Assembly (NCBI GenBank): GCA_028717885.1
Contig: JAQUMX010000004.1
Coordinates: forward strand, 2,145 to 66,144
Direction: 5' to 3'
Length of the DNA: 64,000 bases
Source of the DNA: Candidatus Omnitrophota bacterium
GTDB taxonomy: Bacteria; Omnitrophota; Gorgyraeia; Gygaellales; Profunditerraquicolaceae
Position numbers and translations under genes: made by a program. The notes under the pieces were generated by a model. The model worked only from the letters and a program-made list of their open reading frames with translations, was not told the origin of the DNA and did no database searches. Of this stretch, positions 3,001-22,254 are shown in pieces; the first letter of the stretch is position 1, and each line of letters starts with the position of its first letter.

Positions 3001-6000
3001 ACCGATAATAGTAGGTGGTAGCTGCTGTAAGGTTAGCATCGGAATAGCTGGTAGTATTAGGCGGTAAAACTTTCAAAGCCGCGTATGCGCTATCGCTGGA
3101 CCTGCGTTCCAGCTTAAATTCAGATTCATTATCAGCATTATCATGCCAGCTTAAATCGATCTGATGCCCGGAAACAGCCTTGGCGTTAAAGCCACTGGGT
3201 GCTGCCGGCGGATTCATAAATGTAGTTGCACTGGCGATATTGGAATAAGCAGAATTACCCGCAGCATTAATAGCTCTAATCCGGTAATAATAAGTAGTGC
3301 CGCTTGAGGCTTTCTTATCCTCATAAACGGTCGTATTCTGCTCCAAGGAAACTATTTGTACAAAACCTTCGTTTTGCTTAGTGCTGCGCTCCAATTGAAA
3401 AGCAGCTTCATTATCCGAAGCATCTACCCACTCCAAATTTATCTGTGTAGTAGAAGCAGCTATTGCTGCCAGGTCCTTAGGCGCAGCCGGAGGATTGATC
3501 GGCGTCGTAACATTTACTTCCACGCTATCGGAATCACCGCTGGCGTTAGTAGCTCTCAAACGATAATAATACTTAGTGCCTTCACTAAGGTTAACATCAG
3601 AATGATTTTCTGTATTGGCTGCCAAAGTTTCCAGAAGGTTGTACGCTTCCCCTTCTTTCTTACGCTCTAATTTGAACCCGGTTTCATTGACGGCATTATC
3701 TGTCCATAACAAATCAATTTTTTCGGGGTTAACCGCCTGGCCGCTAAAACCTGTCGGAGCAGCGGGAATGCCGGGCTGTGTAGTTGCCTGTGCCCGGTTG
3801 GAAAATTCAGAATCTATCCATTGCTTGTGAGCAGCCACCTTATAATGATAGGTAGTCCCCGCACTAAGGTTAGTCTCCTGATAAGTAATATTATCCGCGC
3901 CTTGCACAGTAGCGATAATCTCATAGTTTCCTCCGGCAGTATCACTGCGGCCAATATGGAACCCTTCGGCAGTAGGCGCATTGTTTTGCCAACTTAAATC
4001 AATTGCGCTGCTGGACACGGTTCTCGCAATAAGATTGCTGGGTGCTGATAACAAGGTAATTGCTCCGGCATTATTAGAGTATTCGGAAAATGTATTACCG
4101 CGGCTGGCGCGCAGGCGGTAATCATAGGATTCGCCTTCGATGAGAGCATCGCTATCATCATAACTTCTTACCTCTGCACCTAAAGTTGCAATCTGGGTAA
4201 ATGTAACGCCTCCGGAAAGTTTACGTTCCAGCTTAAAACCATCGTGATCGCTTTGAACGGCATCATCCCAAGAAAGATTAATCTGCGATACAGATACTCC
4301 TTGCGCCTTGAGGTTAAACGGCGCAGGCGGCGGATTAATTAAAGTCATAGCATTCGCCGGTTCGGAGTAACCTGATTCCGCGGTCGAATTCAAAGCACAA
4401 ATTTTATAGTAATAGGCAGTCCCTTCTCCTAATCCTGTATTATGGTAACTTCTCTCCAGTGCGCTGTTTATTACAAAGGTATCCGGAAAATTTAACCCGT
4501 CCGTACCGCGGATAATTCTAAATCCGGTGACATTGACCCCGCTATGTTCCCAGTTTAAATCGATTTGAGAAGTATTTATCGCTGTAGCCTGTAAATTCTG
4601 CGGCACAGTCGGTACAGGTATAGGAGTCGTGGCATCCGCGGTATTTGAATAAGCAGAATCACCCGCAGAATTTGTAGCCCTGATCCTATAATAATACTTA
4701 GTGCCTTCGCTTAAATTTTCATCGGCAAAACCTGTAGCATTAGCTTGGGCAACTGCGATTTCCGCAAAATCACTTTGCTGTGTTCTACGTTCGATCTTAA
4801 AGCCGGTTTCATTAGAAGAACTATCCTGCCAATCTAAATTAATATGCTCAGAGTCAATGGCTGTGGCGGTTAGATTCTCTGGTGCCAAAGGAAGATTAAC
4901 CGGCGTGACCGCATCTGCGGTGTTCGAATTAGCGGAATCACCGACCAAATTAAATGCGCGCACACGGTAATGATACTTCGTCCCTTCGGCTACGCGCGTA
5001 TCGCTATAAACATATACATTGGCATTGACAATACGGATCTCTTCGAAATTTCCGCCTTCGATTTTACGCTCGATCTTAAAACCGGTTTCGTTATGAGAGT
5101 TATCCTGCCAATTAAGGTTAATTTGCATCAGAGGCAACTGCGCAGCCGAAGCCAAAAGCTGGCTGGGGGCTTCGGGGATTCCGGTAATTGTCGTAGCGCT
5201 GGCAATATTCGTATACGCGGAATTACCGGCATTATTATGAGCACGCACCCTGTAATAATATGTGGTGTCGGCGATCAATCCGGTATTACTGAATGTCTCA
5301 ACCCCTTTTGCAACTGTGCCGATTTGAACAAATTCATCATCAGGATTAATTTTACGTTCGATTTTATACCCGTCTTCATTTATGGAATTACGCACCCAAT
5401 AGAGCCTGATCTCGGTAGAAGATGCCGCAGCCGCAGCTAAAGCTGTAGGCGCAGCAGGAACCCCCTGAGGTGTAGTTGCGCTAGCAGTATTGGAATATTG
5501 CGAATCGCCAATCAGGTTCATTGCCCTGACGCGATAATAATACTTTGTTACCGGAGAAACCTGAGTATCGCTATAGGCATTCACATCCGCATTTACAATT
5601 TTAATTTCCACAAACTGAGAAGCTGACCCGTTTTCCTCAATAGCCCTCTCGATTTTAAAGCCGGTTTCATTATTCGAATTATCTGTCCACTTTAAATCGA
5701 TTTGTATTGGAGACTGCGCGGATGCGCCTAAATTACTGGGAGCTAAAGGAGAAGTCTGTGCCGTAGTAGCAACAGCAATATTAGTAAATGGGGAATTCCC
5801 AGCTGCGTTATAGGCAAAAACTCGGTAATAGTAAGCGGTATCAGCTATTAATTCCTTATTACTATAAGTTTCTACTCCCGCGCCGACTGTGGCAATCAGA
5901 TTGAAATTTCCTTCGGGAGTGAGGCTACGTTCGATCTTAAAGCCGGTTTCATTGGTTGAATTGCGTACCCAATATAGATTAATTTCGCTGGCCGATGCGG

Positions 6001-9000
6001 TAACTGCTGCCAAAGCCGTAGGGGCGTAAGGAATGGCCTGTACGGTAGTAGCGGAAACCTTATTAGAGTATTTCGAGTTCCCGATCAAATTAAATGCCCG
6101 TACCCTGTAATAGTATTTTGTCTGTTCGGATAATTGAGTATCACTATAGGTATTTTCCCCGGCATTAAGGATTCTGATTTCCGTGAAATTCCCTCCTTCA
6201 ATGCGGCGTTCGATTTTAAACCCTGTCTCATTATCGGAATTATCAACCCAGGCTAAATTAATTCCTGAGCTTGAAATTGCTGTAGCAACAAGCCCGCCCG
6301 GAGCCAGGGGGATCGCCGGATTAACGGGAGCTGTCCCGACATTGGTATATTCGGAATTTCCCGCATCGTTAAAAGCGCAAACCCTGTAATAATATGTGTT
6401 ATCCAAATTGATATTGGTATCATCGAAAATATTGGTGTTTGCAAAAGTAGTAGCAATCTGGGCAAAGCCGCTATCCGGATTAAGGCTACGCTCCACCTTG
6501 AACCCATCTTCATTATTGGCATTATCCACCCAGGTAATCCTGATTTGCGTTGCAGAACTAATACTGACGCCCAAAGCAGTCGGCGCAACCGGGGTACTTT
6601 GCGGCGTTTTAGCATTGACAGTATTGGAATAATCGGATTCCCCGACAGCGTTATATGCGCGTACCCGATAATAGAACCTAGTATTCGGGCTGATACCTAT
6701 ATCCTGGAAGTTAACCACATCTGCATTCACGATCGCGATTACCGCAAATTCCTCTCCTTCTAAATGGCGCTCGACCCAGAAACCTGCTTCATTATTAGCA
6801 TTGTCTTTCCAATTTAAATCGACCTCGCTGGCAGAAACTGCCGAAGCGGTAAGGCCGCTTGGCGCACCAGGAGCGGTATTATACGTAGAGGTTCCGTTAA
6901 TATTGCTGTATCCTGAATCCCCCGCGCTATTATAGGCACGCACGCGATAATAATATGCCGTATTAGACGATAAATCCTTGTCATTATAGTTGGAGATATC
7001 CGCCCCTAGCGTAGTAATTTGCTGGAATTCCGTATCGGGCTTGAGGCTGCGTTCGATTTTAAAACCCTCTTCATTATTAGCATTATCCACCCAGGTAAGG
7101 CCGATCTCTGTCGTAGAAACCGGATACACGCCTAAAGCCGTAGGAGCATAAGGCACGATTTGTGGTGTAGTAGCATCGGCAATATTCGAATAAGGCGATT
7201 CCCCTGCTATATTATAAGCACGCACGCGATAATAGAATTTAGCCAAGGGGCTTAATCCGGTATCGCTGTACCTGTTCTGGCCGGCGCCCACGATGTAAAC
7301 TACGTCAAATTCTGTGCCTTCCATCCGGCGCTCAATCATAAAACCGACTTCATTATGTGAATTATCTTCCCAGTTTAAGTCGATTTGCGTAGCTGAAGCA
7401 GCTACTGCGCTAAGGCCGCTCGGCGCATTAGGAATGCCGCTTGAGGTAGTAGCAGAAATAGTATTAGAGTATTCGGAATCCCCTAAATTATTGAACGCCC
7501 TGACACGAAAATAATATTTGGAATCCGGAGTTAAATTTGTATTCACATAATCCATAACATTGGGGGCAACTAGGCCGATCTGAACGAATTCATTATTTTC
7601 TGTACGGCGCTCGATCTTAAATCCATCTTCATCTTCGGAATTATCCACCCAGGTCAAGGAAATCTGCGTCGGAGAATTTACGCTTGCCCCCAAAGCTGTC
7701 GGGCCAGCGGGCACGCCTTTAGGGGTAGTGCCTTCAGCGATATTGGAATCAGCTGATACCGCTGTCTGATTATAAGCACGCACGCGATAGAAATACTTCG
7801 TGCTGGATTTAGCCTGCGCATCTTCAAAAGATAATGTTTTATTATTGACTGTCGCAATAGTTTTAAAATCGGTTTTTGCAGTACGGCGGTCGATTTTATA
7901 CCCAAGGATGTTTGCGGAAAGGGTAGAAACCGCCAAACCTGACCTGATCCTTGCATCACGAACCCCCTGTTTCCAATGCAACGTAATCCGCGAACTGGAA
8001 ACCACGGTGGCAGTAAGATTAGCCGGCGCGGGAATTGCTGAATCAACCGGGGTTTTTACGATTAAAGCATCTGACCTGCATTCCGTGTATAATTCTCCAT
8101 CGGGCGTGGCATAAACCCGGTAATGGTATTCTGTATTGCCTCTCACGGTTTTATCCGTATAGGAAAGTGCTGTTCTGGCTACTTTATCGTCGATAGTGAT
8201 ATACCCGGCATTCGGAGCCCGGGTAAGGTCTTTGCGCCGGATAATAAAATTCTTTAAGAGATCGCTATTAGGACGGTTAAAATCGTAAGCCCAATTGATA
8301 ATAGCTTCGTTTGCCATAATATTCGTGGCATTCAGATTTGTTGCCGGCGGAGGCAAAACTAAAGCTTCTACCGTAACTCTAATACCATTACTCTCTCCGG
8401 CAGCGTTAATTACCTTAACCAGCCCGGTAACAGCACCAGCCGGGACTTTGCAGGTAATCTCATTGTCTTTCCAGGCCACGATTTCACAGGTTGCCTTATT
8501 TTCAAAAATTACCCTGCCATTTTCTTGCATGCTCCCAAAATCCTTACCCTTAATCACCATCTCCGTTTCCGGATTCACGGTTTGCGGTTCAATACTATGC
8601 ACAACCGGGGCAAATGCGACTCTTCCCAGATAAATATTGTCCTTATCTCTCCAGGCAATCCGGTTACCGAAAATCTTCGGGTAGGAATAATTTCCGCTGG
8701 CCACTTTTACTTCCATATCCCTGGCAATGTCATAAAGGTAAATCCCTTCCCCTCTTACTTTATCATTACCCCAGGTAATTTTTCCCTGATCGATATCCAA
8801 GCCGGATGCATTACCTATATCTGCAGCAACCAGAGTTTCTTTTTTCGCAGCTAAATTATAAAGGTAAAGGTCGCTTATAGAATGGCGCAATGAACGGCGG
8901 AAATCTATCCAGATAATATCGTCTCCGGAAATTTGCGGGGAGTCCGAACTGTAGCGGCAGATTTGTTTTTTACTCTGATCGGTAAAATCATACAAATAAA

Positions 9001-10216
9001 TCCCTCTTGAATTAATTTCCCGGGTAAAATTCCCAAATACCAGCTTTTCCCCATCCAAAGCAAAACTATAGGCGTTTGCCCCCAGAATCCTTCCTTTTTT
9101 ATGCGTAGACAGATTTACCGCATTCAAAGATTTACCGTCGTCCCAAACTACCCTGTTTTGGCCGATTTTTGCCCTGAATGCCTTTCCTGCTATATCTATT
9201 CTTTCTGTCAAACCGGTTGAAAGGTCATAAAGAGAAATATTGCCCTTACCCAGCTGGTTCCTTGTAATCCATACCAGCTTATTCTGGCTAAAATCATCTA
9301 TCGGATGATAAGAAAGGATTCTGTTTTTTTGCTTGGTATTTAAGTCATATTTATAGATGCCTGCGCCCCTGCCGATTTCGTTCCAAACCAAGTTGTCGCC
9401 TTCAATAAAAAGAGAGACCAAGAATTCCGGATAAGAAAATGTATTTATCTTCTTTTCCTTAATATCCACCACCGCGAATTCTAATTCTTTTGTTACGGTG
9501 TGAGTGTCGTCTTTGGCAACAAAAATTACCTTGTATGCTCTACCCTTATCTTTTTGAGAAGGATTCCAGGAAACTATCCCCGTTTGCGGGTTAAAACTGA
9601 ACCTGGGAACCTTGTTTGCATCAGGGCAAGAAAGCTTAAGCCTTCCCTGAACAGTAGCCGGGTCATCGGGGTCTTTGACATTAAGGCGGAACTTTAACAT
9701 CCTTCCCGCTGCCGTACCGTGATTATGCTGATTAACGAACTCCGGGGGCTCGCTTACATTATCAATGGTAAAATTTACTGAATCAGTTAACTCTATTTGT
9801 TGCTGATTCCGGACAGCTTTAACCTTTAAAATCAGAATGTATTCGCCATCTTTTATTCCGGCGGTATCCCAGAAACACAGAGAACTATCCCTGATCATGG
9901 TAGTTGCCGGGCGCTCGAGGATTTTTTTCATTTCCAAGGGGTTTGCCGCTGAGGCATAGTAAAGCTGGTATTCTTTGAAGCCAGCGTCTAAATAAGCGCT
10001 GCCCACGACATTGACCTTATTATTCGGCTCTGTATGCAGATATGCCCCTTCCTGGGGGCTGGAAATATACACCATCTGAGGCAACAATGCGGTTTGCCCC
10101 GGCAACCCCGCAGTGCCGTCGGCAAGGGTATTATAGGTAAAGGAAAATGGCGACAACAAAATAACCGAAATAATAAATGCTAATCCGCGTTTACTGTTCA
10201 ATAAATGTTTTTTCAT
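1..10216 (-). CDS. Giant secreted/cell-surface protein, N-terminal 3,405 codons; the 3' end of the gene lies beyond the left window edge. Signal peptide, two Ig/cadherin-like domains, ~7 beta-propeller-like blades, an IPT/TIG domain, then >=27 FN3 modules interrupted by two copies of an unassigned ~125-aa module
   Basis: Absent from the supplied ORF track because no stop codon falls inside the window. Own reverse-complement translation starts at ATG 10216-10214, preceded by GGAGGA (+ strand cctcctc 10221-10227), and reads MKKHLLNSKRGLAFIISVILLSPFSFTYNTLADG... The frame was checked base by base at several points (7441 downward: SGIPNAPSGLSAVA; 1201 downward: NVLQIHTLSALQVS) and read through to position 2. 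The + strand ORFs listed for 253-9697 are short antisense shadows. Confidence 0.9.
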   Translation of the reverse strand, partial: MKKHLLNSKRGLAFIISVILLSPFSFTYNTLADGTAGLPGQTALLPQMVYISSPQEGAYLHTEPNNKVNVVGSAYLDAGFKEYQLYYASAANPLEMKKILERPATTMIRDSSLCFWDTAGIKDGEYILILKVKAVRNQQQIELTDSVNFTIDNVSEPPEFVNQHNHGTAAGRMLKFRLNVKDPDDPATVQGRLKLSCPDANKVPRFSFNPQTGIVSWNPSQKDKGRAYKVIFVAKDDTHTVTKELEFAVVDIKEKKINTFSYPEFLVSLFIEGDNLVWNEIGRGAGIYKYDLNTKQKNRILSYHPIDDFSQNKLVWITRNQLGKGNISLYDLSTGLTERIDIAGKAFRAKIGQNRVVWDDGKSLNAVNLSTHKKGRILGANAYSFALDGEKLVFGNFTREINSRGIYLYDFTDQSKKQICRYSSDSPQISGDDIIWIDFRRSLRHSISDLYLYNLAAKKETLVAADIGNASGLDIDQGKITWGNDKVRGEGIYLYDIARDMEVKVASGNYSYPKIFGNRIAWRDKDNIYLGRVAFAPVVHSIEPQTVNPETEMVIKGKDFGSMQENGRVIFENKATCEIVAWKDNEITCKVPAGAVTGLVKVINAAGESNGIRVTVEALVLPPPATNLNATNIMANEAIINWAYDFNRPNSDLLKNFIIRRKDLTRAPNAGYITIDDKVARTALSYTDKTVRGNTEYHYRVYATPDGELYTECRSDALIVKTPVDSAIPAPANLTATVVSSSRITLHWKQGVRDARIRSGLAVSTLSANILGYKIDRRTAKTDFKTIATVNNKTLSFEDAQAKSSTKYFYRVRAYNQTAVSADSNIAEGTTPKGVPAGPTALGASVNSPTQISLTWVDNSEDEDGFKIERRTENNEFVQIGLVAPNVMDYVNTNLTPDSKYYFRVRAFNNLGDSEYSNTISATTSSGIPNAPSGLSAVAASATQIDLNWEDNSHNEVGFMIERRMEGTEFDVVYIVGAGQNRYSDTGLSPLAKFYYRVRAYNIAGESPYSNIADATTPQIVPYAPTALGVYPVSTTEIGLTWVDNANNEEGFKIERSLKPDTEFQQITTLGADISNYNDKDLSSNTAYYYRVRAYNSAGDSGYSNINGTSTYNTAPGAPSGLTASAVSASEVDLNWKDNANNEAGFWVERHLEGEEFAVIAIVNADVVNFQDIGISPNTRFYYRVRAYNAVGESDYSNTVNAKTPQSTPVAPTALGVSISSATQIRITWVDNANNEDGFKVERSLNPDSGFAQIATTFANTNIFDDTNINLDNTYYYRVCAFNDAGNSEYTNVGTAPVNPAIPLAPGGLVATAISSSGINLAWVDNSDNETGFKIERRIEGGNFTEIRILNAGENTYSDTQLSEQTKYYYRVRAFNLIGNSKYSNKVSATTVQAIPYAPTALAAVTASASEINLYWVRNSTNETGFKIERSLTPEGNFNLIATVGAGVETYSNKELIADTAYYYRVFAYNAAGNSPFTNIAVATTAQTSPLAPSNLGASAQSPIQIDLKWTDNSNNETGFKIERAIEENGSASQFVEIKIVNADVNAYSDTQVSPVTKYYYRVRAMNLIGDSQYSNTASATTPQGVPAAPTALAAAAASSTEIRLYWVRNSINEDGYKIERKINPDDEFVQIGTVAKGVETFSNTGLIADTTYYYRVRAHNNAGNSAYTNIASATTITGIPEAPSQLLASAAQLPLMQINLNWQDNSHNETGFKIERKIEGGNFEEIRIVNANVYVYSDTRVAEGTKYHYRVRAFNLVGDSANSNTADAVTPVNLPLAPENLTATAIDSEHINLDWQDSSSNETGFKIERRTQQSDFAEIAVAQANATGFADENLSEGTKYYYRIRATNSAGDSAYSNTADATTPIPVPTVPQNLQATAINTSQIDLNWEHSGVNVTGFRIIRGTDGLNFPDTFVINSALERSYHNTGLGEGTAYYYKICALNSTAESGYSEPANAMTLINPPPAPFNLKAQGVSVSQINLSWDDAVQSDHDGFKLERKLSGGVTFTQIATLGAEVRSYDDSDALIEGESYDYRLRASRGNTFSEYSNNAGAITLLSAPSNLIARTVSSSAIDLSWQNNAPTAEGFHIGRSDTAGGNYEIIATVQGADNITYQETNLSAGTTYHYKVAAHKQWIDSEFSNRAQATTQPGIPAAPTGFSGQAVNPEKIDLLWTDNAVNETGFKLERKKEGEAYNLLETLAANTENHSDVNLSEGTKYYYRLRATNASGDSDSVEVNVTTPINPPAAPKDLAAIAASTTQINLEWVDASDNEAAFQLERSTKQNEGFVQIVSLEQNTTVYEDKKASSGTTYYYRIRAINAAGNSAYSNIASATTFMNPPAAPSGFNAKAVSGHQIDLSWHDNADNESEFKLERRSSDSAYAALKVLPPNTTSYSDANLTAATTYYYRLKASNSGGDSDVVEASAATFAPIPSVPTSFTGSTISTTQVNLAWQHNGVNLTGFKVIRGTNGSTFPDVVTVTNASARSYNNTGLNPGIKYYYKICALNSSVESDYAGPIAARTFAITASATDVALRLVKGPPGEYTYTNAFVITNVCSTGGTTWLLTPNQDGTFTSPGGQPQSVLIQGFGFYEASGGLSAGHTLTVRGYINNNKAAGRYAGSYKLQEYIDNVRIDIATIHFSIVVEEGAPIAPSGLSGAAISSGEIDLSWIDNSNNEDGFEIFTATSNNGPFEHVKTVSANATSFRHLTAFNPGSTYYYNVKAYKGTNYSVASNTIAVVMDPPIPAIPGNLTAAAISSNQVRFTWQDNSNNEDGFKIGEGTKSTGPFYDVETVPANATTFTRTSNFSAGTTYYFVIRAYKGVNFSGYSNVSYVGILAAPSDLTATVISGTQINLTWVNNANNLTKFKLERKTDNTAYSQIAMPEIEPTTYSDTNLTPGTKYYYRIRATNDTGDSGYSNEVSVTMPLPAAAPSNLVASSALVNQINLSWTDNANNENGFKLERSAAQANGFTQIANLGANTTAYEDKDLASGMTYYYRIKAFNESGDSAYSNVLQIHTLSALQVSATAVSEVLQLGSDTTLYTYGTGFIITNNGSLTGFRVSANNDATFTPPGGAAQSVTATDFGFQWSTGGINAGASYTVKTFCWNGRPAGIYAGTGKVFESISGKPEIEVATVRYTLDVRKQLAAPTNLRAELTGTPGEVRLTWDDNADNEAGFIIEEKPSGFTQFIELVNWPQPNKTNYITTGYQPGVACTFRVLAYNAANRSAYSNEASVIFPLVAPTNLNLSAVNSQALKLSWKNNTFVSVPEVRIERRTESSAYAQIESIAVAGETQTYNDSSLSANTKYYYRLRCHNANGDSPYSQEVNATTPADGPAAPSNLSAIADAKIAQVSLSWLDNSADENGFKIERRKGSAAFQSIGTVAANVKTYLDASTDLTELSAYEYRVYAYRG
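812..1200 (-). other. Non-FN3 insert module X1 (~125 aa) within the FN3 array
   Basis: Translation LQIHTLSALQVSATAVSEVLQLGSDTTLYTYGTGFIITNNGSLTGFRVSANNDATFTPPGGAAQSVTATDFGFQWSTGGINAGASYTVKTFCWNGRPAGIYAGTGKVFESISGKPEIEVATVRYTLDVRKQ. It lacks the FN3 signature and is homologous to X2 (shared TY..F.ITN ... TF..PGG..QSV ... FGF ... GG..AG ... AG.YAG). Confidence 0.6.
2293..2665 (-). other. Non-FN3 insert module X2 (~125 aa), paralogous to X1
   Basis: Translation FAITASATDVALRLVKGPPGEYTYTNAFVITNVCSTGGTTWLLTPNQDGTFTSPGGQPQSVLIQGFGFYEASGGLSAGHTLTVRGYINNNKAAGRYAGSYKLQEYIDNVRIDIATIHFSIVVEEG. Confidence 0.6.
8365..8620 (-). other. IPT/TIG-like Ig domain of the giant protein
   Basis: PVVHSIEPQTVNPETEMVIKGKDFGSMQENGRVIFENKATCEIVAWKDNEITCKVPAGAVTGLVKVINAAGESNGIRVTV. 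This is the classic IPT/TIG pattern (P.I.SI.P......T...I.G..FG......V.F.......I..W....I.C.VP.G...G.V.V). Confidence 0.7.
8625..9440 (-). repeat. About seven ~40-45-aa beta-propeller-like blades in the N-terminal part of the giant protein
   Basis: Seven units of the form (G/Q)(D/N).(L/I/V)(V/I)W ... (G)IY(L/K)YD(L/F/I).(T/A) ... For example GDNLVWNEIGRGAGIYKYDLNT, QNKLVWITRNQLGKGNISLYDLST, GEKLVFGNFTREINSRGIYLYDFTD, GDDIIWIDFRRSLRHSISDLYLYNLAA, QGKITWGNDKVRGEGIYLYDIAR, GNRIAWRDKDNIYLGRV. Confidence 0.6.
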
Positions 10217-10235: not shown

Positions 10236-10258
10236 TAAATAAAAAACCCTCAAAGGGT
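10236..10258 (-). terminator. Short hairpin plus U-run between the riboswitch terminator and the RBS of the giant gene (a second terminator-like or SD-context element)
   Basis: Minus strand ACCCU-UUG-AGGGU followed by UUUUUAUUU. The stem is only 5 bp. Confidence 0.35.
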
Positions 10259-10282
10259 AACTAGCGCCCAATGAGGGGGAGG

Positions 10283-10319
10283 AAAAATAAAAAAACCCTA
10301 AAAGGCTTTTTTAGGGTTT
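10283..10319 (-). terminator. Intrinsic terminator, the candidate expression platform of the c-di-GMP riboswitch
   Basis: Minus strand AAACCCUAAAA-AAGCC-UUUUAGGGUUU (11-bp perfect stem) followed by UUUUAUUUUU. It lies about 65 nt upstream of the giant-gene ATG and directly after the aptamer. Confidence 0.75.
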
Positions 10320-10321
10320 GA

Positions 10322-10410
10322 TTCCTCTTTGGCAACCCCGCTATCCTTATATTAGGTAAGGACCGGAAGCTTTGCGCCCCAGCATTACTGCTAGTTAGCC
10401 TTTATCAGTA
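10322..10410 (-). promoter_or_regulatory. c-di-GMP-I (GEMM-I) riboswitch aptamer in the 5' leader of the giant surface-protein gene
   Basis: Minus-strand RNA UACUGAUAAAGGCUAACUAGCAGUAAUGCUGGGGCGCAAAGCUUCCGGUCCUUACCUAAUAUAAGGAUAGCGGGGUUGCCAAAGAGGAAU. It carries the conserved GEMM-I blocks as I recall them from the V. cholerae Vc2 aptamer (..GGCAAAC-[hairpin with GNRA loop]-GGGACGCAAAGCCUCCGG ... UAGCGGGGUUACC..). Here these are GGCUAAC, hairpin CUAGCA-GUAA-UGCUGG, GGGGCGCAAAGCUUCCGG, hairpin UCCUUA/UAAGGA, and UAGCGGGGUUGCC. P1 GGC(U)AAC/GUUGCC is complementary. Confidence 0.8.
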
Positions 10411-10452
10411 GGTACAAAATACCAAATTGTCAAAATTACATCTTATATATGA

Positions 10453-10480
10453 AATATAGCATATTTTTAGGCAATTTCAA
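10453..10480 (-). promoter_or_regulatory. Sigma70-like promoter for the riboswitch and giant gene
   Basis: Minus strand TTGAAA (10480-10475), 16 nt spacer, TATATT (10458-10453), about 40 nt upstream of the aptamer. Confidence 0.5.
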
Positions 10481-10503: not shown

Positions 10504-11025
10504 TTAATCTGCGGCTAGCTGCGAAATGGTAAACGCGCCTTCTAAGAGCTGGGAATTAGGCTTAGTGTTGAGATCCAGCTTCTTAACCTCCAGAAGAGAC
10601 AGGGAATTTTCCAGGCTATAGATGAATTTTATGTAACCATCGAGGCTACCCTCAGCCCTTACATCAATAATAATCTCTTTGTAGAGATCAAGGCTTCTGG
10701 GCGTCTGCGGGCGGATATCGACAATCCGGATATTCGCGTCTTTAGCGAGATTTTCCAATTCGGCTAAGGTATCTACTAAAGTATCTTTTTCCGATAAAGA
10801 TAGCTTTGCGCCCGAAGTGTATTTGTTATTCTGGATCGCCTCTTTCTGGTTCAGCAACCAGAGGTATTTTTTCAACTTTGCCCGGGTGGTAGTAATCTGG
10901 CGGTTTAAAAGCTCGTTTTTCTTAAATACAGGGGCGAGCAAAAAATTAAAAATTAGGCTAAAAATAATTATCGCTACGGTCAAATAAAAGATCAGCTTTT
11001 CTCTTTTGGAAATTATCCTTTGCAT
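10504..11025 (-). CDS. PilO/GspM-like assembly-platform protein
   Basis: 173 aa. N-terminal TM helix, coiled coil and a C-terminal alpha/beta domain. Last gene of the T2SS-like operon, 1 nt after the upstream gene. Confidence 0.7.
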   Translation of the reverse strand: MQRIISKREKLIFYLTVAIIIFSLIFNFLLAPVFKKNELLNRQITTTRAKLKKYLWLLNQKEAIQNNKYTSGAKLSLSEKDTLVDTLAELENLAKDANIRIVDIRPQTPRSLDLYKEIIIDVRAEGSLDGYIKFIYSLENSLSLLEVKKLDLNTKPNSQLLEGAFTISQLAAD

Positions 11026-11026
11026 T

Positions 11027-12460
11027 TTATTTATTTAAGCAGGCAATTTCGAATTCCACGATTTCCCCGGTTTTAGTCTTCCTCTTACTGGCATATCTGA
11101 CTTTAATATTAAAGTTTTTCAGTTCCGGCATTTTCTCCAACGCAGAGACAAAAACAAACACCGGATTCAACTCCTGCGCCTGGCCGCGTAAAATAACTTG
11201 CTTGCCTTCTTCGTAGCTAAAACTGATAAGATACGCAGAACTGGGCAGGGATTTAAAACATCCGGTTAAAAGCTCCAGGCTCGAAGACCTTTTAGCGCTC
11301 TGGCTATCCAATATCTTCGACCTTTTTTCGATTTCTTCTAGCGGCCGGGCATCTTTGCTGACCTTCTCCAATTCTGTTTTTAAACGTTGCAGGTATTTTG
11401 ATTTGTTATCGATGTTCTTGAATGTCGCTACGGACCAAATCAATGCCAAAACTGCGGCAAAAACAAACGTCCGTAAACTTTTTTGGTATACTTTCAGCTG
11501 CTTGCCTTTTTCCCTGACTTCTTCGGGCACAAGGTTAAGGGTATCTTCTATCGTATCCACCCCGAAACCAAAAAGGCTGACAAAAGAACACCCGTAAGAT
11601 TGAGCCTTTTGCGCCAAGGCATCGGAAAGATTAATTTTTTTATAAAAAGGTACCTGCTCAATTGACAAAGGGACCTTTTCTTTTAATAAATTGAAACATT
11701 CTTCCATCATCTTGCCGCTCCCCAAAATCATGATTTTTTGCGGCTGCTCTTTCGAAAATTCTTTTGTATAAGCCTCAAGGGAACGGTTGACTTCCTCGAC
11801 GAAAACAAACTTCCAGTCTTCTCTTGAACGGTTTAGTTTGAAATACCTGCTAAAGGCCATTTTCCTTTTGGAAACTACCACCAGCTCAACCTGATTAAAA
11901 TCGATATCGACGATCATTACCGGAGGATTATCCTGCGGAAAAAGGTAGTTGTATAAATTACATATCCCGTATGATCCAAGATGGATGAAAAATTTTTTTA
12001 TTTTCAGGGCCTTAAATATTTCCAGGTAACGGGAAACAATGTCTTTGTGGACAATAACCAGATTGATCGCTGAATACCCCCCGGTTTGCGTAGAAATCAC
12101 TTGATAGCCGGTAATTAATTCGTCGATCGGATAAGGCAGGTACCTCGGAGCCTGCAAGGAAGCGATCTTTGCTATTTCCTGAGGGGATTGGGCCGGAAGG
12201 ATAGCGTGCCGGCAGGTGGCCTGGTTGCGCGCCAGCGAAAGGATTACCGGGTAATTATTGATCCCGAGCTTTTGGGCAGCCGCTAATAACTTCTGCGTCA
12301 ACTTTTGATTATCGGCGCTTTCTGCCAAAGCTTCAAATTCAAGGCCGAGAAATTCTTTTTTCCCGTCTCTAGAGCATTTTACCGCTTTAAAGGCATTGTC
12401 GGTTATCTGCAGGATAAAAACAGTATTCTTGTTGCCTAGGCTACTCAACAGCTTCTTCAT
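11027..12460 (-). CDS. PilM-PilN fusion / GspL-like assembly-platform protein
   Basis: 477 aa. The ~330-aa N-terminus is actin-like and PilM-type, followed by a TM helix (LRTFVFAAVLALIWSVATF) and a ~120-aa periplasmic PilN/GspL-like domain. Confidence 0.75.
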   Translation of the reverse strand: MKKLLSSLGNKNTVFILQITDNAFKAVKCSRDGKKEFLGLEFEALAESADNQKLTQKLLAAAQKLGINNYPVILSLARNQATCRHAILPAQSPQEIAKIASLQAPRYLPYPIDELITGYQVISTQTGGYSAINLVIVHKDIVSRYLEIFKALKIKKFFIHLGSYGICNLYNYLFPQDNPPVMIVDIDFNQVELVVVSKRKMAFSRYFKLNRSREDWKFVFVEEVNRSLEAYTKEFSKEQPQKIMILGSGKMMEECFNLLKEKVPLSIEQVPFYKKINLSDALAQKAQSYGCSFVSLFGFGVDTIEDTLNLVPEEVREKGKQLKVYQKSLRTFVFAAVLALIWSVATFKNIDNKSKYLQRLKTELEKVSKDARPLEEIEKRSKILDSQSAKRSSSLELLTGCFKSLPSSAYLISFSYEEGKQVILRGQAQELNPVFVFVSALEKMPELKNFNIKVRYASKRKTKTGEIVEFEIACLNK

Positions 12461-12475
12461 TATTTTTTTATGATA

Positions 12476-13474
12476 CTATATTTGCCGCCAAAAGACAATT
12501 TTTTTGTTTTTCCGGTCATAAATAGCACTGATTTTCATCAATGTCCTGCCGGAATTACTGCTCGAATCAATACGAAAAACACTCGATTTAAAAGTAAGGC
12601 TGCCGGCAAGCTTATTTAAAAAATTCCCTTCTGCGGTGCTTAATTGGGCCAGCGTCCTGATATCGCCTTCCCCATTGACCGGTTGGGCATTGCGCAAAGT
12701 AATAATTTTTTCGCTAAGGCTTGCGGCAGCGGAAATTTCTTCTGCATTAGTGGCAAGGGCATTAGCCATGATTGCCAGCGCTTCCGGAGAAACAGTATTT
12801 ACATTTACCGCACTGGATGGGCTATAAACAGTAATGTAATTTTCCAGCTGCTTATAGACATCCCAGGCCTTTTTCTGGTAATCCGCGATTTTTCCTTTGT
12901 AAAAATACTCCAAAAGACTGACTAATTCTGCGCAATTGGAAAACTTATCTTTTTTTAACTGTGGGTAATTTAAAGTTACATCAAGCGCCGGGTCATTACG
13001 CCAGTAAAGAGCGTAATTGACCAATTCGTTTACCCCGCTTTCCACCCCGCCTTTTGCAAATATCCCGGAGAGTACAGCCGGTGAAACAAAGTTAAGATTG
13101 ACCCTACTCTCTTCATCGCTCATGCAATGATAATTATTCCCCTGATCGAGGAAACCAATGGTAAATTTATTTCCTGAGCCCTGGCTTAACTCTATTTCCT
13201 TGAAAATATAATTTTTCGTATCCGGATCTATGCCTATGCTCCAAGGATCAGTCAAACAATCCGAATCCTTTGAAACAGCAGACGCTGCGCTGCTTAAAAA
13301 CAGGATAGCTTTCTCTATTCCTGATTGTGCCAGAAGCTCTGAGGCGAGCCGCTCTTTCTGGGAACGCGCTAATTTCAAATTAATCATGGCGCGGTTTCCT
13401 AAACCGATAACAAAAACTACCAGGATCGCCAATACCCAGAGGCAAATCATCAAAATCGAACCGCGGCGCCTCAT
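12476..13474 (-). CDS. gspK: Minor pseudopilin GspK-like
   Basis: 332 aa. N-terminal hydrophobic helix without Glu5 (MRRRGSILMICLWVLAILVVFVIGL) and a helix-hairpin-helix-like VNVNTVSPEALAIMA motif typical of T2SS protein K. Confidence 0.75.
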   Translation of the reverse strand: MRRRGSILMICLWVLAILVVFVIGLGNRAMINLKLARSQKERLASELLAQSGIEKAILFLSSAASAVSKDSDCLTDPWSIGIDPDTKNYIFKEIELSQGSGNKFTIGFLDQGNNYHCMSDEESRVNLNFVSPAVLSGIFAKGGVESGVNELVNYALYWRNDPALDVTLNYPQLKKDKFSNCAELVSLLEYFYKGKIADYQKKAWDVYKQLENYITVYSPSSAVNVNTVSPEALAIMANALATNAEEISAAASLSEKIITLRNAQPVNGEGDIRTLAQLSTAEGNFLNKLAGSLTFKSSVFRIDSSSNSGRTLMKISAIYDRKNKKIVFWRQI

Positions 13475-14109
13475 GGGTTTCCTCCTAAGGGAATAGCGAT
13501 TGTCCTTAAAAAATCTACGGCAGAAACTTCTTCGCCGTGCCTATCCTTCTCAATCAAGGTAAGTTTTATTCTTACTGCCAAAGGCAATGACTTTTCCTGG
13601 TCCTGGTTCTGCTCCGCCGGCCAGGTATCTTGCCAGGCAATAGGATTATTCGCATCGGAAGACCGATAAGCAAACTCCAGCGAGATGTCTTTTATATCCG
13701 CAGCTAATTCTTGCGGCTCGAGCAGAGAATTTGTTTCGCTCGCCTCCAGCCCACGGTAAAAGTAGCGTTTCAAAACTTTATCCGTAAGTTCATACCGCAC
13801 CCGGCAAGGCAAAATCCGGCTCTCTCCTTTTTCGAAAACCTCGGATACCGAAAAAAATTCTAAACCGGACTGGGCTTTACCGCCTTTAAACCCTGAGCCG
13901 GATTGCATATAACAATAGGAATTCTTTAGATCGCTTTCCATGCGGTTTAAAATTACTTTTGCCGTCTGGTAAATTCCTGCCGCAGATTCCTGTTTTTCGT
14001 AGCTTAGGATCCCGGTCTGCAAGGCAGAATAAACACCCACTACGATCACCGCAGAAAGCGAAACTGCAAGCAATACTTCAATTAAGGTAAAACCTTTTTT
14101 CTTGATCAT
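13471..14109 (-). CDS. gspJ: Minor pseudopilin GspJ-like
   Basis: 212 aa. Prepilin leader MIKKKG|FTLIEVLLAV. Overlaps neighbouring genes by 4 nt. Confidence 0.75.
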   Translation of the reverse strand: MIKKKGFTLIEVLLAVSLSAVIVVGVYSALQTGILSYEKQESAAGIYQTAKVILNRMESDLKNSYCYMQSGSGFKGGKAQSGLEFFSVSEVFEKGESRILPCRVRYELTDKVLKRYFYRGLEASETNSLLEPQELAADIKDISLEFAYRSSDANNPIAWQDTWPAEQNQDQEKSLPLAVRIKLTLIEKDRHGEEVSAVDFLRTIAIPLGGNP

Positions 14110-14495
14110 TGGCTTTGCGCAGGTATGAGGGCTAAGAAATTAAGCATTGATTTCTCCCGGCTATTCTTACTCGGTAAAAACACCTTAAAATCCAACAACA
14201 ATAACCCTTGGTCGGCAGAATCCGATAAAGAACAATTCCAGTCAAACTGACTTTGCTGCAGTGTCGCGGCGCCTTCCTGGAACCTGGTTACGGAGGCAGA
14301 ATTTTTTTGTATTGCGCTAATCTCGAAGATTTTTTCTTCCGCTAAAAATGTAGCGGTAATCATATCCTGTGCCAGCCTTTGCGAAGCAAGTAATGTGACA
14401 AAGGAACGAAAAATAAAAATAATCGCCGTAGAAACTATGGCAATAGTGATCAAAACTTCAATAAGGGTAAACCCTTTATTTGACCTGGATTCCAC
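14106..14495 (-). CDS. gspI: Minor pseudopilin GspI-like
   Basis: 129 aa. Prepilin leader ..SNKG|FTLIEVLITIAIV. Confidence 0.75.
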   Translation of the reverse strand: MESRSNKGFTLIEVLITIAIVSTAIIFIFRSFVTLLASQRLAQDMITATFLAEEKIFEISAIQKNSASVTRFQEGAATLQQSQFDWNCSLSDSADQGLLLLDFKVFLPSKNSREKSMLNFLALIPAQSQ

Positions 14496-14934
14496 CTGAG
14501 GCTCCGCTAAAAATTAATGACAACTTATCCTTGTTCTGGTTTTCAAAAACTAAGCTCGCTTTACCGGTACTGGCATCCGGATAAAAGTAGACTCCTTGGT
14601 CCGCAGCAGGATCAAGCGAAACCTCTACTCCGCGCGGCGCCTGGTAGACCTTGGCAAACCTGCCGCTAAGATTCTTGAATTCCGCATTCTCCAAGGTTAA
14701 AGCCTGTAATTGGCCGCTTTCAATATTGACTGCCAGAAAATAGGTCTTCCCCTGCGAAATAGCGCTATCCTGCAAATAGCGGCTTAAGAAATAAATATCC
14801 TTGGAAAAATTTTGCAGTTCAAAACGGCAAAAGGTACTTTTGAAGCGCGGGAAGGCAACCGCCGAGGCGACCCCGATAATGATAATTACTATAAAAAGCT
14901 CGATAAAAGTAAAGCTTCTAATTTTGCGTATCAT
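14476..14934 (-). CDS. gspH: Minor pseudopilin GspH-like. The track ORF extends to 15039, but the likely start is ATG 14934
   Basis: MIRKIRS|FTFIELFIVIIIIG from ATG 14934. The longer ORF would overlap gspG by 120 nt. Ser rather than Gly sits at position -1 of the prepilin site. Confidence 0.7.
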   Translation of the reverse strand: MIRKIRSFTFIELFIVIIIIGVASAVAFPRFKSTFCRFELQNFSKDIYFLSRYLQDSAISQGKTYFLAVNIESGQLQALTLENAEFKNLSGRFAKVYQAPRGVEVSLDPAADQGVYFYPDASTGKASLVFENQNKDKLSLIFSGASGGIQVK

Positions 14935-15292
14935 TGCAGATTTGGCCTTCGGACTTGGTTTCATCAGGGCCGCTGGAGCAAAGCTTGTATTCTTTGCCGT
15001 CCGGAGAAGAATAGATATATGCTTTTCCCCATGGGTCAACAGGTTTTCTTTTCAGGTACGGCCCCTTTCCGGTTTTGGCGGTCAAATCATCGAGGCTGGC
15101 AGGGTATTTGCCGTTATCCATTTCATACATATCCAAGGCCGTAGCAATATTGGCATTAATATCCGCTTTAGCAGCAGCAATCCTGGCTTCTTCCGAACGG
15201 CCAACCAGACGCGGCATTACCATTGCCGCCAATACTCCGATAATAATTACCACTAACATTAACTCAATAAGCGTAAACCCTTTATTTCTCAT
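14918..15292 (-). CDS. gspG: Major pseudopilin GspG
   Basis: 124 aa. MRNKG|FTLIELMLVVIIIGVLAAMVMPRL..., DMYEMDNGKYPASLDDL and DPWGKAYIY are hallmark GspG motifs. Confidence 0.9.
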   Translation of the reverse strand: MRNKGFTLIELMLVVIIIGVLAAMVMPRLVGRSEEARIAAAKADINANIATALDMYEMDNGKYPASLDDLTAKTGKGPYLKRKPVDPWGKAYIYSSPDGKEYKLCSSGPDETKSEGQICNDTQN

Positions 15293-15314
15293 CGTATCCT
15301 CCTTTAGAGCTAAA

Positions 15315-16523
15315 TTATCTGGCCAGCAAATTAATTTGGAATATTGGTAAAAGCATGGAGATCACGATAAACCCTACGATTATCCCCATTACCAAAATAA
15401 TTACCGGTTCGAGCATCCGGGTTAAGTTCTTTATCGTGGAGTCCACTTCTTTTTCATAATCCTGCGAAATACGCAATAGCGCCTTCTCCAGCGTCCCGGT
15501 TTCTTCCCCTACACTCACAATACTATTTACCATGCTCGGGAATAATTTCGATTCGCTTAAACACCTGGACAAGCTTAAGCCGTCATTGATCCGTTCCCTA
15601 AACCGCAAAAGCTCGATCCGTAAGATTTCATTTTCCGCGAGGGCCGCGGAGATATCCAAAGAAGAAGTAATGGTAATGCCGCTAGAAAGCAGCAGCGCCA
15701 ACGTGTGCATCAGCCGGCTGATTTCGCTCTTTAAGATAATATCCCCGAAAAAAACTAATTTCAATTTTATCCTGTCCCAAACGATTTTATTGGCAACTAC
15801 TCGCTGTGAACGCCGAAACAAGAATACGCCGGTAATTACAATTGCCAGGATCATCCACCAATAAATGCGCAACGCATTAGAAGCTGCAATCAAGGCTCGC
15901 GTAGGAAGAGGTAACACCTGGCCCATATCTTCGAACATTACGGTTAAGCGCGGAATGACAAAGGTGAGCAGTACTATTATCGTGCCAATACCCACCAGCA
16001 TGATAAAAATAGGATAGATCAAAGCCGAACTCAGGGAATCGCTGAAATCCTGTTCTTTTTCCAAAAACCCGCTTAGGCGCTCCAGCGCCCCGTCGATATT
16101 CCCCCCCACCTCACCGGAATGGATGAGCTGTACATAGAGGTTAGAAAAAATTTGCGGGTGATAATTTAGGCTATCCGATAAAGATTTCCCGTCTTTGATC
16201 TTGCTTACGACGTCATTAATCACCGCCCTAAAATATTTATTCGTGGTCTGGCGGGAAATAATATTCAAACCATTGATGATATTGATTCCGGAACCGATCA
16301 GATTGGATAGCTGGCGGGTAAAAACTACGACTTCCTGTTTGCTGACCTTGCGAAAAGGAAAAAAACTTTTTCTTTCCAGGGAGATATTTAGTGCTTCGAT
16401 AGAAATCGGAAAGTAGCCTAATTTCGTAAGCTTGGTGACTGCTTCACTTTCTGATTCAGCTTCGATTTCCCCTTGGATAGTTTTATCGGGTGCAGGCTTG
16501 GCAATATAGATATATTGAGGCAT
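15315..16523 (-). CDS. gspF: T2SS/T4P inner-membrane platform protein GspF/PilC
   Basis: 402 aa with two T2SSF-type repeats and 3 TM segments. The start abuts the gspE stop. Confidence 0.9.
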   Translation of the reverse strand: MPQYIYIAKPAPDKTIQGEIEAESESEAVTKLTKLGYFPISIEALNISLERKSFFPFRKVSKQEVVVFTRQLSNLIGSGINIINGLNIISRQTTNKYFRAVINDVVSKIKDGKSLSDSLNYHPQIFSNLYVQLIHSGEVGGNIDGALERLSGFLEKEQDFSDSLSSALIYPIFIMLVGIGTIIVLLTFVIPRLTVMFEDMGQVLPLPTRALIAASNALRIYWWMILAIVITGVFLFRRSQRVVANKIVWDRIKLKLVFFGDIILKSEISRLMHTLALLLSSGITITSSLDISAALAENEILRIELLRFRERINDGLSLSRCLSESKLFPSMVNSIVSVGEETGTLEKALLRISQDYEKEVDSTIKNLTRMLEPVIILVMGIIVGFIVISMLLPIFQINLLAR

Positions 16524-20910: not shown

Positions 20911-20939
20911 TTGACACCCGGAAATTTTTATATTACAAT
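20911..20939 (+). promoter_or_regulatory. Near-consensus sigma70 promoter of the GGDEF-like gene
   Basis: TTGACA (20911-20916), 17 nt spacer, TACAAT (20934-20939). The TTG that the ORF track uses as a start codon is the first triplet of the -35 box. Confidence 0.6.
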
Positions 20940-20949
20940 GTCGGTTAAG

Positions 20950-22254
20950 ATGAGGCTGACATTACAGAGCAGGATTATCAATATGATGATCGTTTCTAGC
21001 GTGCTGCTGGTAAGCGCCTTCACCTTTATCCAGGTCAATAACCAAGTCCAGAATATCAGCCGCTATAATTCCTACCAAGCAAACCTTTCAACCGTATTGG
21101 TAAAAAACAACCTTCAGGCAATGCTTAAGGGCGCAGCAGCAGAAGATGTGCCGGGATTTTTGCGCGTGGCGATTGCTTCCCTGGCGGAAGCGGAGATCAC
21201 GAATCATTTGATTGTTTATGATAAAGACGGAAAAATCATCGCTTCTTCGAATAACCAGGTCGGAGAAACGGTTTCATTCAAGGATTTAAGCAAAGCGGAT
21301 GATTTAAAAAGCCTCCTATCGCAGAACAAATGGTATTTCAGTTCTATTGACCGTCTTAAGCACCAATTGAACATCTATGTAGCGCTTACGGAACAGCCGG
21401 GGATACTGGGATATGTGGCAAAAATATCTTTACCCCTGGCTAGTATTGGCGAAGCCCTAAACCAAGTGTATATACCGGTAATTATCGCCATCCTCGTGGT
21501 TATCGCCGCAAACATTATCTTAAGTTACATACTTTCCCGTACCGTGGTCGGCCCGATAAAAATGCTTAATGAGGTCACTAAAATCATCGCTGCCGGAGAT
21601 TTAGCTGTCCGGACAGATATCCATACCGAGGATGAAATCGAAGAACTGGGCGCGACTTTCAATTACATGGCCGGAGAACTGGTAAAAATGAAAGAACGCG
21701 CGGAAAACGCCAATCCGCTGACAAAACTTCCGGGCAATATCGTCATCCACGAACAGATAGACAAGCGGATCAACAGCAAAGAAAAATTCATGGTTATCTA
21801 TTGCGACTTGGATAACTTCAAGGCTTTTAACGATAAATACGGCATTGCCAAAGGCGATGAGGCAATTAAACTTACATCCGAGGTATTTAAAGAATCGGTA
21901 AAAGTTAAGGGCGGGCCCGATGATTTTCTCGGCCACGAAGGCGGCGATGACTTCCTTTTACTCACTACTCCCGACAGAGCAGAGGGGGTTGCCGAATATA
22001 TTACCAGCGAATTTGACAAAAGGGTACGCTCCCTTTACAGCGAAGAGGATCTAAAGGCAGGCAAGATTATCGCTCATGCACGCGACGGTTCGATCAAAGA
22101 ATTCCCCATTATGACTATATCGCTTGCCGGTGTTACCAATGCACACCGGCCAATCATCAGCTACGTCGAAGTAACCAATATTGCGGCTGAAATAAAGAAG
22201 AAATCCAAAGCTATTCCCGGAAGCAGTTTTGTAGTAGATAAAAGGAAGGATTAG
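20950..22254 (+). CDS. Membrane sensor with HAMP and a GGDEF-family domain (variant signature GGDDF). The start is uncertain: ATG 20938, 20950 or 20983
   Basis: Two TM segments flank a periplasmic region. HAMP segment (VGPIKMLNEVTKIIAAGDL...). GGDEF-type domain NPLTKLPGN...IYCDLDNFKAFNDKYG...GHEGGDDFLLL. GGDDF is encoded at 21940-21954. Confidence 0.8.
   Translation: MRLTLQSRIINMMIVSSVLLVSAFTFIQVNNQVQNISRYNSYQANLSTVLVKNNLQAMLKGAAAEDVPGFLRVAIASLAEAEITNHLIVYDKDGKIIASSNNQVGETVSFKDLSKADDLKSLLSQNKWYFSSIDRLKHQLNIYVALTEQPGILGYVAKISLPLASIGEALNQVYIPVIIAILVVIAANIILSYILSRTVVGPIKMLNEVTKIIAAGDLAVRTDIHTEDEIEELGATFNYMAGELVKMKERAENANPLTKLPGNIVIHEQIDKRINSKEKFMVIYCDLDNFKAFNDKYGIAKGDEAIKLTSEVFKESVKVKGGPDDFLGHEGGDDFLLLTTPDRAEGVAEYITSEFDKRVRSLYSEEDLKAGKIIAHARDGSIKEFPIMTISLAGVTNAHRPIISYVEVTNIAAEIKKKSKAIPGSSFVVDKRKD

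Follow-up and report, generated by a model that had tools for sequence, protein, structure and literature searches.

The giant genes of the Omnitrophota are among the largest bacterial genes, most members of this phylum are uncultured, and to our knowledge it is not known to anyone when a giant gene is expressed. The window, i.e., the whole stretch of DNA that was analyzed (64,000 nt of contig JAQUMX010000004.1, assembly GCA_028717885.1, from a Candidatus Omnitrophota bacterium), contains on its minus strand a giant open reading frame (ORF) preceded by a 230-nt leader, which begins with a conserved sigma-70 promoter and separates a type II secretion-like operon from the giant gene. A preliminary description of this DNA had placed in the leader a class I riboswitch for cyclic di-guanosine monophosphate (c-di-GMP) and one terminator, and had inclined only tentatively to an OFF polarity. 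We found in the sense-strand 5′ leader, in this order, the promoter, one aptamer, two intrinsic terminators, a Shine-Dalgarno (SD) sequence and the ATG at 10216. The aptamer is almost certainly a real class I c-di-GMP aptamer, its ligand is very probably c-di-GMP, and the architecture of the leader argues, with a probability that we put at about 0.65, for a transcriptional OFF switch with two sequential terminators. A conserved, Rfam-detectable riboswitch would provide a hypothesis for giant genes that can be tested in vitro, namely that low c-di-GMP allows read-through.

When both strands of the 64 kb were compared with 4,227 Rfam families by cmscan, a single match was obtained, at 10409-10327 on the minus strand (62.3 bits, E 2.5e-12), and it ends 111 nt 5′ of the giant-ORF ATG. 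All the sequence blocks from which the preliminary description had recognized the aptamer were found on the minus strand, at the following places:

10324 to 10412, minus strand: class I c-di-GMP aptamer (Rfam span 10409-10327; 93 bits with R1, a covariance model built in this analysis)
10400 to 10394, minus strand: block GGCUAAC
10394 to 10379, minus strand: P2 hairpin CUAGCA-GUAA-UGCUGG, with the GUAA loop at 10388-10385
10380 to 10363, minus strand: block GGGGCGCAAAGCUUCCGG
10371 to 10334, minus strand: P3, from the Rfam alignment
10362 to 10344, minus strand: hairpin UCCUUA/UAAGGA
10343 to 10331, minus strand: block UAGCGGGGUUGCC

The P1 helix reaches further than previously described (to 10412/10324) and is bipartite, i.e., CCU (10412-10410) pairs with AGG (10326-10324), and UG (10407-10406) pairs with CA (10331-10330). 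According to the model alignments the ligand triad is canonical: in the numbering of Vc2, the aptamer of the Vibrio cholerae tfoY leader, G20 is 10400, A47 is 10373 and C92 is 10332. The C92 equivalent is the first C of UUGCC, 9 nt 3′ of the G83 equivalent (10341), as in Vc2, whose sequence we take to have this same spacing. The G and A contacts had been assigned properly before, but the C of UAGCGGGG (10340), proposed as the third one, is a base of the P3 helix; the contact was misassigned, yet the true C92 is also conserved. The C44-G83 inter-helix pair is intact (10376 and 10341). The numbering of these key bases was anchored on G83 and C92, which correspond to G73 and C81 of Bc1, the aptamer of the Bacillus thuringiensis mcpE leader (PMC11218506, PMC4744006), and the C44-G83 Watson-Crick pair has been called universally conserved (PMC4744006). 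The element is a known switch class in a new place, and its fold and binding site match Vc2 and RF01051. In common with Vc2 it has the three-helix junction, G20, A47 and C92, the C44-G83 pair and a GNRA loop on P2; it differs from Vc2 in that the loop is GUAA, P3 is a continuous helix without the 11-nt receptor, an internal loop divides P1 into two parts, and the expression platform consists of two intrinsic terminators. Vc2 itself has been reported as an OFF switch that acts on translation and RNA stability (bioRxiv 10.1101/617340).

The N-terminus of the giant protein gave no orthologue among the genome contigs searched, and hence the neighboring PilM/PilN fusion gene was used as the anchor through which syntenic loci (given as L numbers below) were reached: 27 genome loci, 78 metagenome loci and three contigs with the closest homologues. 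Of the 65 distinct loci with enough downstream sequence, 15 gave an aptamer with Rfam and R1, at the syntenic position directly behind the M-like gene, and in those 15 loci a leader made of promoter, aptamer and terminator follows the homologous type II secretion-like operon. Among 20 distinct related aptamers covariation was strong, with 91% of the cells paired and 14 of 21 pairs changed on both sides, figures that are somewhat inflated because the alignment was fitted to the model; none of 500 shuffles reached the observed values, and slid controls were 30-44% paired. P1 covaries as well (ACCU/AGGU in L048, GUU/GAC in L007 and CUC/GAG in L042), and the distal part of P3 carries compensatory changes in the L030 and L031 leaders. 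C44 and G83 were both present in 15 of the 20 distinct rows, the five exceptions being insertion-bearing or partial aptamers that are poorly aligned there. The Rfam score above the gathering score, the canonical triad, the C44-G83 pair and this covariation all bear out the class I assignment.

The linkage to the giant gene, which had also been proposed, was supported by near-identical leaders that precede orthologous giant genes. From the -35 box to the second terminator the leader is nearly invariant in L030 and L031, though the PilM/PilN proteins are only 65% identical (L030 and L033 are the same locus, and L032 is an identical leader on another contig). Judged from these alignments, the whole leader is under strong purifying selection. 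Furthermore, the riboswitch stands before long or giant ORFs in at least six lineages (the window, L030, L031, L048, L005/L056 and L007). The host phylum appears to be new, as do the target, one of the Omnitrophota giant genes, and the recurrence of the module at secretion/giant-gene loci; a literature search on riboswitches or c-di-GMP in Omnitrophota or Omnitrophica returned nothing relevant.

The expression platform was then described from a terminator scan and from predicted folds. Its two hairpins, and the segments of them that are complementary to the aptamer, are as follows:

10283 to 10319, minus strand: terminator 1 (T1), made of AAACCCUAAAA (10319-10309), loop AAGCC, UUUUAGGGUUU (10303-10293) and the U-run UUUUAUUUUU (terminator scan and folds)
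10298 to 10307, minus strand: anti-T1 target AGCCUUUUAG, i.e., the T1 loop and the top of its 3′ arm, which pairs with CUGA..AAGGCU of the aptamer (10408-10405 and 10402-10397)
10237 to 10277, minus strand: terminator 2 (T2), made of CCCUCA-UU-GGG (10277-10267), loop CGCUAGUUA, CCC-UU-UGAGGG (10257-10247) and UUUUUUAUUU (folds)
10252 to 10265, minus strand: anti-T2 target GCUAGUUAcCCUUU, i.e., the T2 loop and 3′ arm, complementary at 13 of 14 positions to AAAGGCUAACUAGC of the aptamer (10403-10390)

The 11-bp terminator with a U-run of the preliminary description is present at 10319-10293, with a 5-nt loop and followed by UUUUUUUAUUUUU to 10283, but the leader has two terminators and the second one (10277-10247) had been missed. 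The terminator scan picked up the inner hairpin of T2, which ends at 10246 and is followed by a U-run to about 10237. T1 is identical in L030/L032 and compensated in L031, and a second terminator was also observed in L030, L023, L048 and L042. Both terminators are self-contained: they start 7 nt after P1, and no aptamer nucleotide takes part in either stem. When the aptamer helices were enforced in the folding of the window leader, T1 and T2 still formed; in the related leaders treated in the same way, the first terminator formed fully in 12 of 12, and the second terminators formed fully except that of L094 (60% of its pairs). Because the terminators form with the aptamer enforced, the bound aptamer should be unable to stop termination, and this speaks against the usual kind of ON switch. 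In L031, T1 seemed to be lost from the free fold, but this proved to be an artefact of the 3′ end chosen.

Both candidate antiterminators draw on the same strand, the 5′ half of the aptamer (10408-10390). The anti-T1 pairing, of 10 bp interrupted by a 2-nt bulge, gives the minimum-energy fold only in transcripts that end at 10302-10299; the pairing is also seen in the full-length fold, and its enforced energy is -37.5 kcal/mol, versus -34.2 kcal/mol for the native aptamer with T1. In the window clade the aptamer has GGCU and the T1 loop AGCC, and in other lineages these are GGCA and UGCC, which reads as a single compensatory event that keeps the anti-T1 pairing. The anti-T2 duplex is predicted at -20.1 kcal/mol (z -3.2), and its 13 matches were reached by none of 1000 dinucleotide shuffles of the downstream region (mean 8.0, maximum 12). 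For the transcript to 10238 it is the minimum-energy fold (-61.8 versus -49.6 kcal/mol for aptamer, T1 and T2 together), and when folds were computed by transcript length it appeared as soon as the T2 loop was transcribed. This complementarity is retained in the window clade. Other lineages follow this logic with sequences of their own: in L005 the 5′ half of the aptamer and the 5′ arm of the terminator form a 16-bp duplex (-23.2 kcal/mol, z -4.5), in L012b and L048 AAGGCAAACC pairs with the loop GGUUUGCCUU, and in L002, L003, L055 and L023 the P1 3′ strand pairs with a terminator arm. The antiterminator suggested earlier, in which GGGGUU of the aptamer pairs with AACCCU of the terminator, occurred in no predicted fold and is not conserved in L048 or L012b; it was rejected as the main antiterminator. 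The pairings of the aptamer 5′ half are better supported.

The OFF polarity toward which the preliminary description had leaned is the one that the leader architecture backs, in that T1 and T2 can form beside the bound aptamer and the antiterminators draw on its nucleotides. We infer the following course of events. In the absence of c-di-GMP the aptamer 5′ half, i.e., the P1 5′ strand, the G20 junction and the P2 5′ strand (10408-10390), would be free, and it would pair first with the loop and 3′ arm of T1 (10307-10298) and next, more stably, with the loop and 3′ arm of T2 (10265-10252). Because the free strand would engage T1 and then T2, RNA polymerase could read through into the giant gene. 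With c-di-GMP bound, the 10408-10390 strand would be locked in the aptamer, T1 and T2 would both fold, and transcripts would end near 10285 and 10240. Such a negative polarity, and the use of one aptamer strand against two terminators, appear to be new, and would give the riboswitch field a clear natural case of one aptamer that serves two successive terminators.

A further helix bears on the level at which the leader might work. Its proximal strand is

10278 to 10296, minus strand: predicted anti-SD strand GUUUUUUUAUUUUUCCUCC, i.e., the T1 U-tract and CCUCC, which pairs with 10225-10207

The predicted helix, which is absent from the preliminary description, has 19 bp (10296-10278 with GGAGGAAAAAUGAAAAAAC, 10225-10207) and covers the SD sequence GGAGG (10225-10221), the AUG (10216-10214) and the A-rich first codons. 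The duplex is predicted at -25.6 kcal/mol, a value that none of 500 shuffles reached, and the helix is present in the full-length folds, both free and with the aptamer enforced. It is not conserved in L030, where another gene follows the leader, and we regard it as a lead rather than a finding. The P1 3′ strand GAGGAA, considered as a decoy for the anti-SD UUCCUC, pairs in one intermediate fold, but this pairing is far weaker than the SD helix and was not retained.

Several observations weigh against the OFF switch with two sequential terminators. As a rule, high c-di-GMP favors adhesion, and an OFF switch on an adhesin-like gene that lies beside an exopolysaccharide cluster contradicts this. 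In the ligand-free model the completed T1 beats anti-T1 thermodynamically, so that antitermination at T1 would have to be kinetic, and in most related leaders the terminator is predicted in free and constrained folds alike. When duplexes of aptamers with their own terminators were compared with cross-lineage ones, the difference was modest (-16.1 versus -13.7 kcal/mol, with the own terminator ranked first in three of nine cases). Because the SD/AUG helix forms in both states, translation may be limited whatever the state of the switch. Ligand binding and termination are themselves predictions. In addition, expression from the one c-di-GMP-I leader with two terminators that has been studied, Bc1, was unresponsive to c-di-GMP in vivo (PMC11218506).

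It is unlikely, though the reading deserves some weight, that the terminators serve, behind the secretion operon, as an attenuator or insulator that is largely constitutive, with the aptamer having little effect or acting at another level (translation or RNA stability). T1 belongs to the minimum-energy fold whether or not the aptamer is constrained, a stable helix that sequesters the SD and the AUG is predicted for both states, the dual terminator of Bc1 is OFF at any c-di-GMP level (PMC11218506), and Vc2 works partly through RNA stability (bioRxiv 10.1101/617340), all of which would suit this explanation; however, the 13/14 complementarity between the aptamer and T2 is far beyond chance and retained in the clade, which is hard to explain without competing structures, and the strong purifying selection covers the whole leader.

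An ON switch, in which c-di-GMP would relieve termination or expose the ribosome-binding site so that the giant protein is made at high c-di-GMP, is decidedly improbable. The exopolysaccharide cluster, the PilZ protein and the GGDEF-like protein in the locus would fit it, as would the precedent of Bc2-cap for a riboswitch-controlled adhesin (PMC4933901) and the unfolding of T1 by c-di-GMP in Bc1 (PMC11218506). Nevertheless, neither terminator stem contains an aptamer nucleotide, the first terminator formed in all 12 leaders with the aptamer enforced, all the strong alternative pairings of the terminators are with segments of the aptamer, and no pairing was found by which the bound aptamer could break T1 or T2.

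It is less probable still that the aptamer is a c-di-GMP-I-GGC variant, or of a cyclic GMP-AMP (cGAMP) type, and senses another ligand than c-di-GMP, as the top Rfam family could suggest. The preliminary description had named RF01051, but the best-scoring model for the window is RF03167 (c-di-GMP-I-GGC; 62.3 bits with a gathering score of 59), and another family of clan CL00126 also passes its own gathering score at 10409-10327. RF03167 is likewise the top model for L030, L031, L012b, L048 and L042b (60-66 bits, all with A47). The GGC label presumably refers to a G at position 47, as judged from the RF03167 consensus. Where this consensus reads CGCGAAgC, the window and all its relatives have CGCAAAGC, i.e., A and not G at position 47, and no relative assigned to RF03167 has the G. 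The aptamer resembles the RF03167 variant in its fold and short P3, but the defining G is an A. RF03167 seems to win because P3 is short and lacks the receptor and the tetraloop is not GAAA, rather than through the binding pocket; relatives with GAAA loops carry receptor-like CCUAAA/AAGG motifs in P3 and score 57-82 bits on RF01051 (gathering score 35). An A at the G20 position characterizes the cGAMP-sensing GEMM-Ib RNAs, and position 20 is a G in the window (10400). The RF03167 match is best read as a cross-match and not as membership, with a canonical c-di-GMP-I binding site, and automated c-di-GMP-I-GGC labels would be misleading here, an annotation pitfall.

A decaying or non-functional aptamer relic, which could be suspected since the aptamer is found at only 15 of 65 homologous loci and the small ORF that usually follows it is lost in the window, can be dismissed as hardly credible, because no key nucleotide is altered, L030 has an identical aptamer core and L031 one that is a single base off, with compensatory changes in the distal P3, and covariation is strong.

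Two observations on class labels stand beside these results. All the receptor-less Omnitrophota aptamers are labeled RF03167 (the window, L030, L031, L012:8563-8643, L048 and L042:2959-3045). In an unrelated Omnitrophota locus, an aptamer at L065:8045-8133 scores 74.5 bits on RF01051 and has an A at the G20 position (AAUAGCUAAC), the only such A among the aptamers tabulated.

The proposed OFF switch with two sequential terminators can be compared with c-di-GMP-I leaders described before. Bc1 has the same arrangement of one aptamer and two rho-independent terminators a few tens of nt apart, and in it c-di-GMP unfolds T1 while T2 stays, with no response of expression in vivo (PMC11218506). In the window, by contrast, T1 and T2 can each coexist with the bound aptamer, whose 5′ half holds complements to both; the phylum and the regulated gene are also different. 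The published structure of Bc1 shows a poly(A) stretch just before the mcpE AUG (PMC11218506), and as the T1 U-tract of the window is predicted to pair with the A-rich stretch round its AUG, one might guess that the Bc1 U-tract pairs with that poly(A). Large surface-protein or adhesin genes under direct control of a c-di-GMP riboswitch, as proposed for the window, are known from Bc2-cap, the collagen adhesion protein of B. thuringiensis (PMC4933901), and from Clostridium difficile (PMC6200980). Unlike these, the window has an architecture that indicates OFF, and its regulated gene exceeds 10 kb and adjoins a secretion system. Bc2 is reportedly an ON switch in which c-di-GMP relieves a terminator.

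A wider reading is possible but doubtful, namely that the leader belongs to a recurrent Omnitrophota module in which giant secreted or surface proteins are under negative c-di-GMP control, with one aptamer 5′ strand handed from T1 to T2 (a two-checkpoint OFF switch) and with the U-tract/anti-SD helix and a conserved tandem repeat 5′ of the aptamer as further inputs. If so, production of giant proteins would be limited to low c-di-GMP, e.g., to a free phase or an attack phase in the life cycle of a predator or epibiont.

Upstream of the aptamer, two elements were recorded:

10453 to 10480, minus strand: sigma-70-type promoter TTGAAA (10480-10475), 16-nt spacer, TG-extended TATATT (10458-10453), from a consensus scan
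10416 to 10440, minus strand: tandem-repeat element between promoter and P1, with 2-3 units of about 8 nt (AUUUUGAC AAUUUGGU AUUUUGUA)

The promoter has 10 of 12 consensus matches plus the TG, and CTTGAAAA-N17-TGnTATAcTT was found at the equal place in 12 related leaders, so that transcription is expected to start near 10446. The repeat core TTGACAATTTG occurs once in the window and in eight of 109 loci, always with a copy directly 5′ of the aptamer; an extra copy lies about 1 kb upstream in L031, and L023 has a perfect ATTTGACA twice. Pairing of the UUUGG of the repeat with CCAAA was predicted in one fold. A role of the repeat as antiterminator or P1 extension is doubtful, as the repeat is kept in L002 and L003 though the 3′ strand differs; candidate roles are those of an operator, of an RNA site bound by a protein, or of an alternative P1.

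The surroundings of the leader comprise the following genes:

1 to 10216, minus strand: giant ORF of more than 3,405 codons, open to the window edge (translation without stop)
10504 to 18245, minus strand: type II secretion-like operon, which ends 287 nt before the giant ORF (Pfam)
16524 to 18245, minus strand: secretion ATPase with an N-terminal MshEN domain (Pfam)
20911 to 22254, plus strand, opposite to the operon: HAMP-GGDEF-like protein with the motif GGDDF
28066 to 28461, minus strand: stand-alone PilZ protein within a long exopolysaccharide cluster

The giant ORF encodes a signal-peptide-like N-terminus, a beta-propeller/TIG region and about 30 fibronectin type III repeats (Pfam fn3, TIG and DUF5050). 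In a set of 5.8 billion proteins, the best matches of its N-terminal domain were TolB-like/beta-propeller surface proteins with 27-31% identity. The 287-nt gap extends from the stop of a 173-amino acid (aa) ORF (10504) to the ATG at 10216. The operon contains genes for M-like, PilM/PilN fusion, J, pseudopilin and F proteins and for the E ATPase with its MshEN domain, in an order that is the same in L029-L031; the PilM/PilN fusion is 77%, 65% and 65% identical to proteins of Candidatus Omnitrophota metagenome-assembled genomes (MAGs). An M48 peptidase and a DUF1573 protein are also encoded upstream of the giant gene on the same strand. That Omnitrophota have giant genes next to type II secretion-like loci has been described before (bioRxiv 10.1101/2023.11.21.568195; 10.64898/2026.06.07.730766), one of these two texts mentions PilZ genes and GGDEF domains, and the word 'riboswitch' occurs in neither. 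As in the window, the published loci have a giant surface-protein gene preceded by a conserved secretion locus, with PilZ/GGDEF nearby.

Most relatives have, between the riboswitch and the long gene, a small conserved ORF of 76-128 aa that contains the motif RVITxLNRxExDFLDKxGKDALFSTG (L030:3000-3230, L048:7264-7617, L007:6202-6543, L002:6200-6508, L023:6153-6539 and L012:8714-9349). It gave no Pfam match, and the window holds no homologue of it; the L012 version is fused to a PilZ domain.

Large insertions were observed in five syntenic aptamers (L042:~1950-2156, L034:5099-5237, L055:7018-7169, L007:6004-6184 and L012:6127-6259). In L042, L034 and L055, two additional hairpins, both conserved (UCCGCCAC..GUGGCGGA and CYCGCCAA..UGGCGRG), are inserted between GGGGC and GCAAAGC, beside A47, and L007 has an insert of about 95 nt between the same two blocks. 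Such insertion-bearing aptamers may represent a structural sub-variant. At L052:~7170-7320, three tandem copies of GCUAGGUAAAGCAGCACCGGCGCAAUUCAUCAUAAGCGCGGGUGUCA, a unit of about 47 nt, separate the terminator from the downstream ORF. A fluoride riboswitch (RF01734, 56 bits) was detected at L010:8860-8921, about 3.5 kb downstream of the homologous secretion-like locus of another Omnitrophota MAG. Finally, the MAG GCA_028717765.1 carries two paralogous secretion-like loci, L029 (PilM/PilN 77%) and L031 (65%); in L031 the riboswitch is followed by a giant fn3/TIG gene, and the contig of L029 ends before that point.

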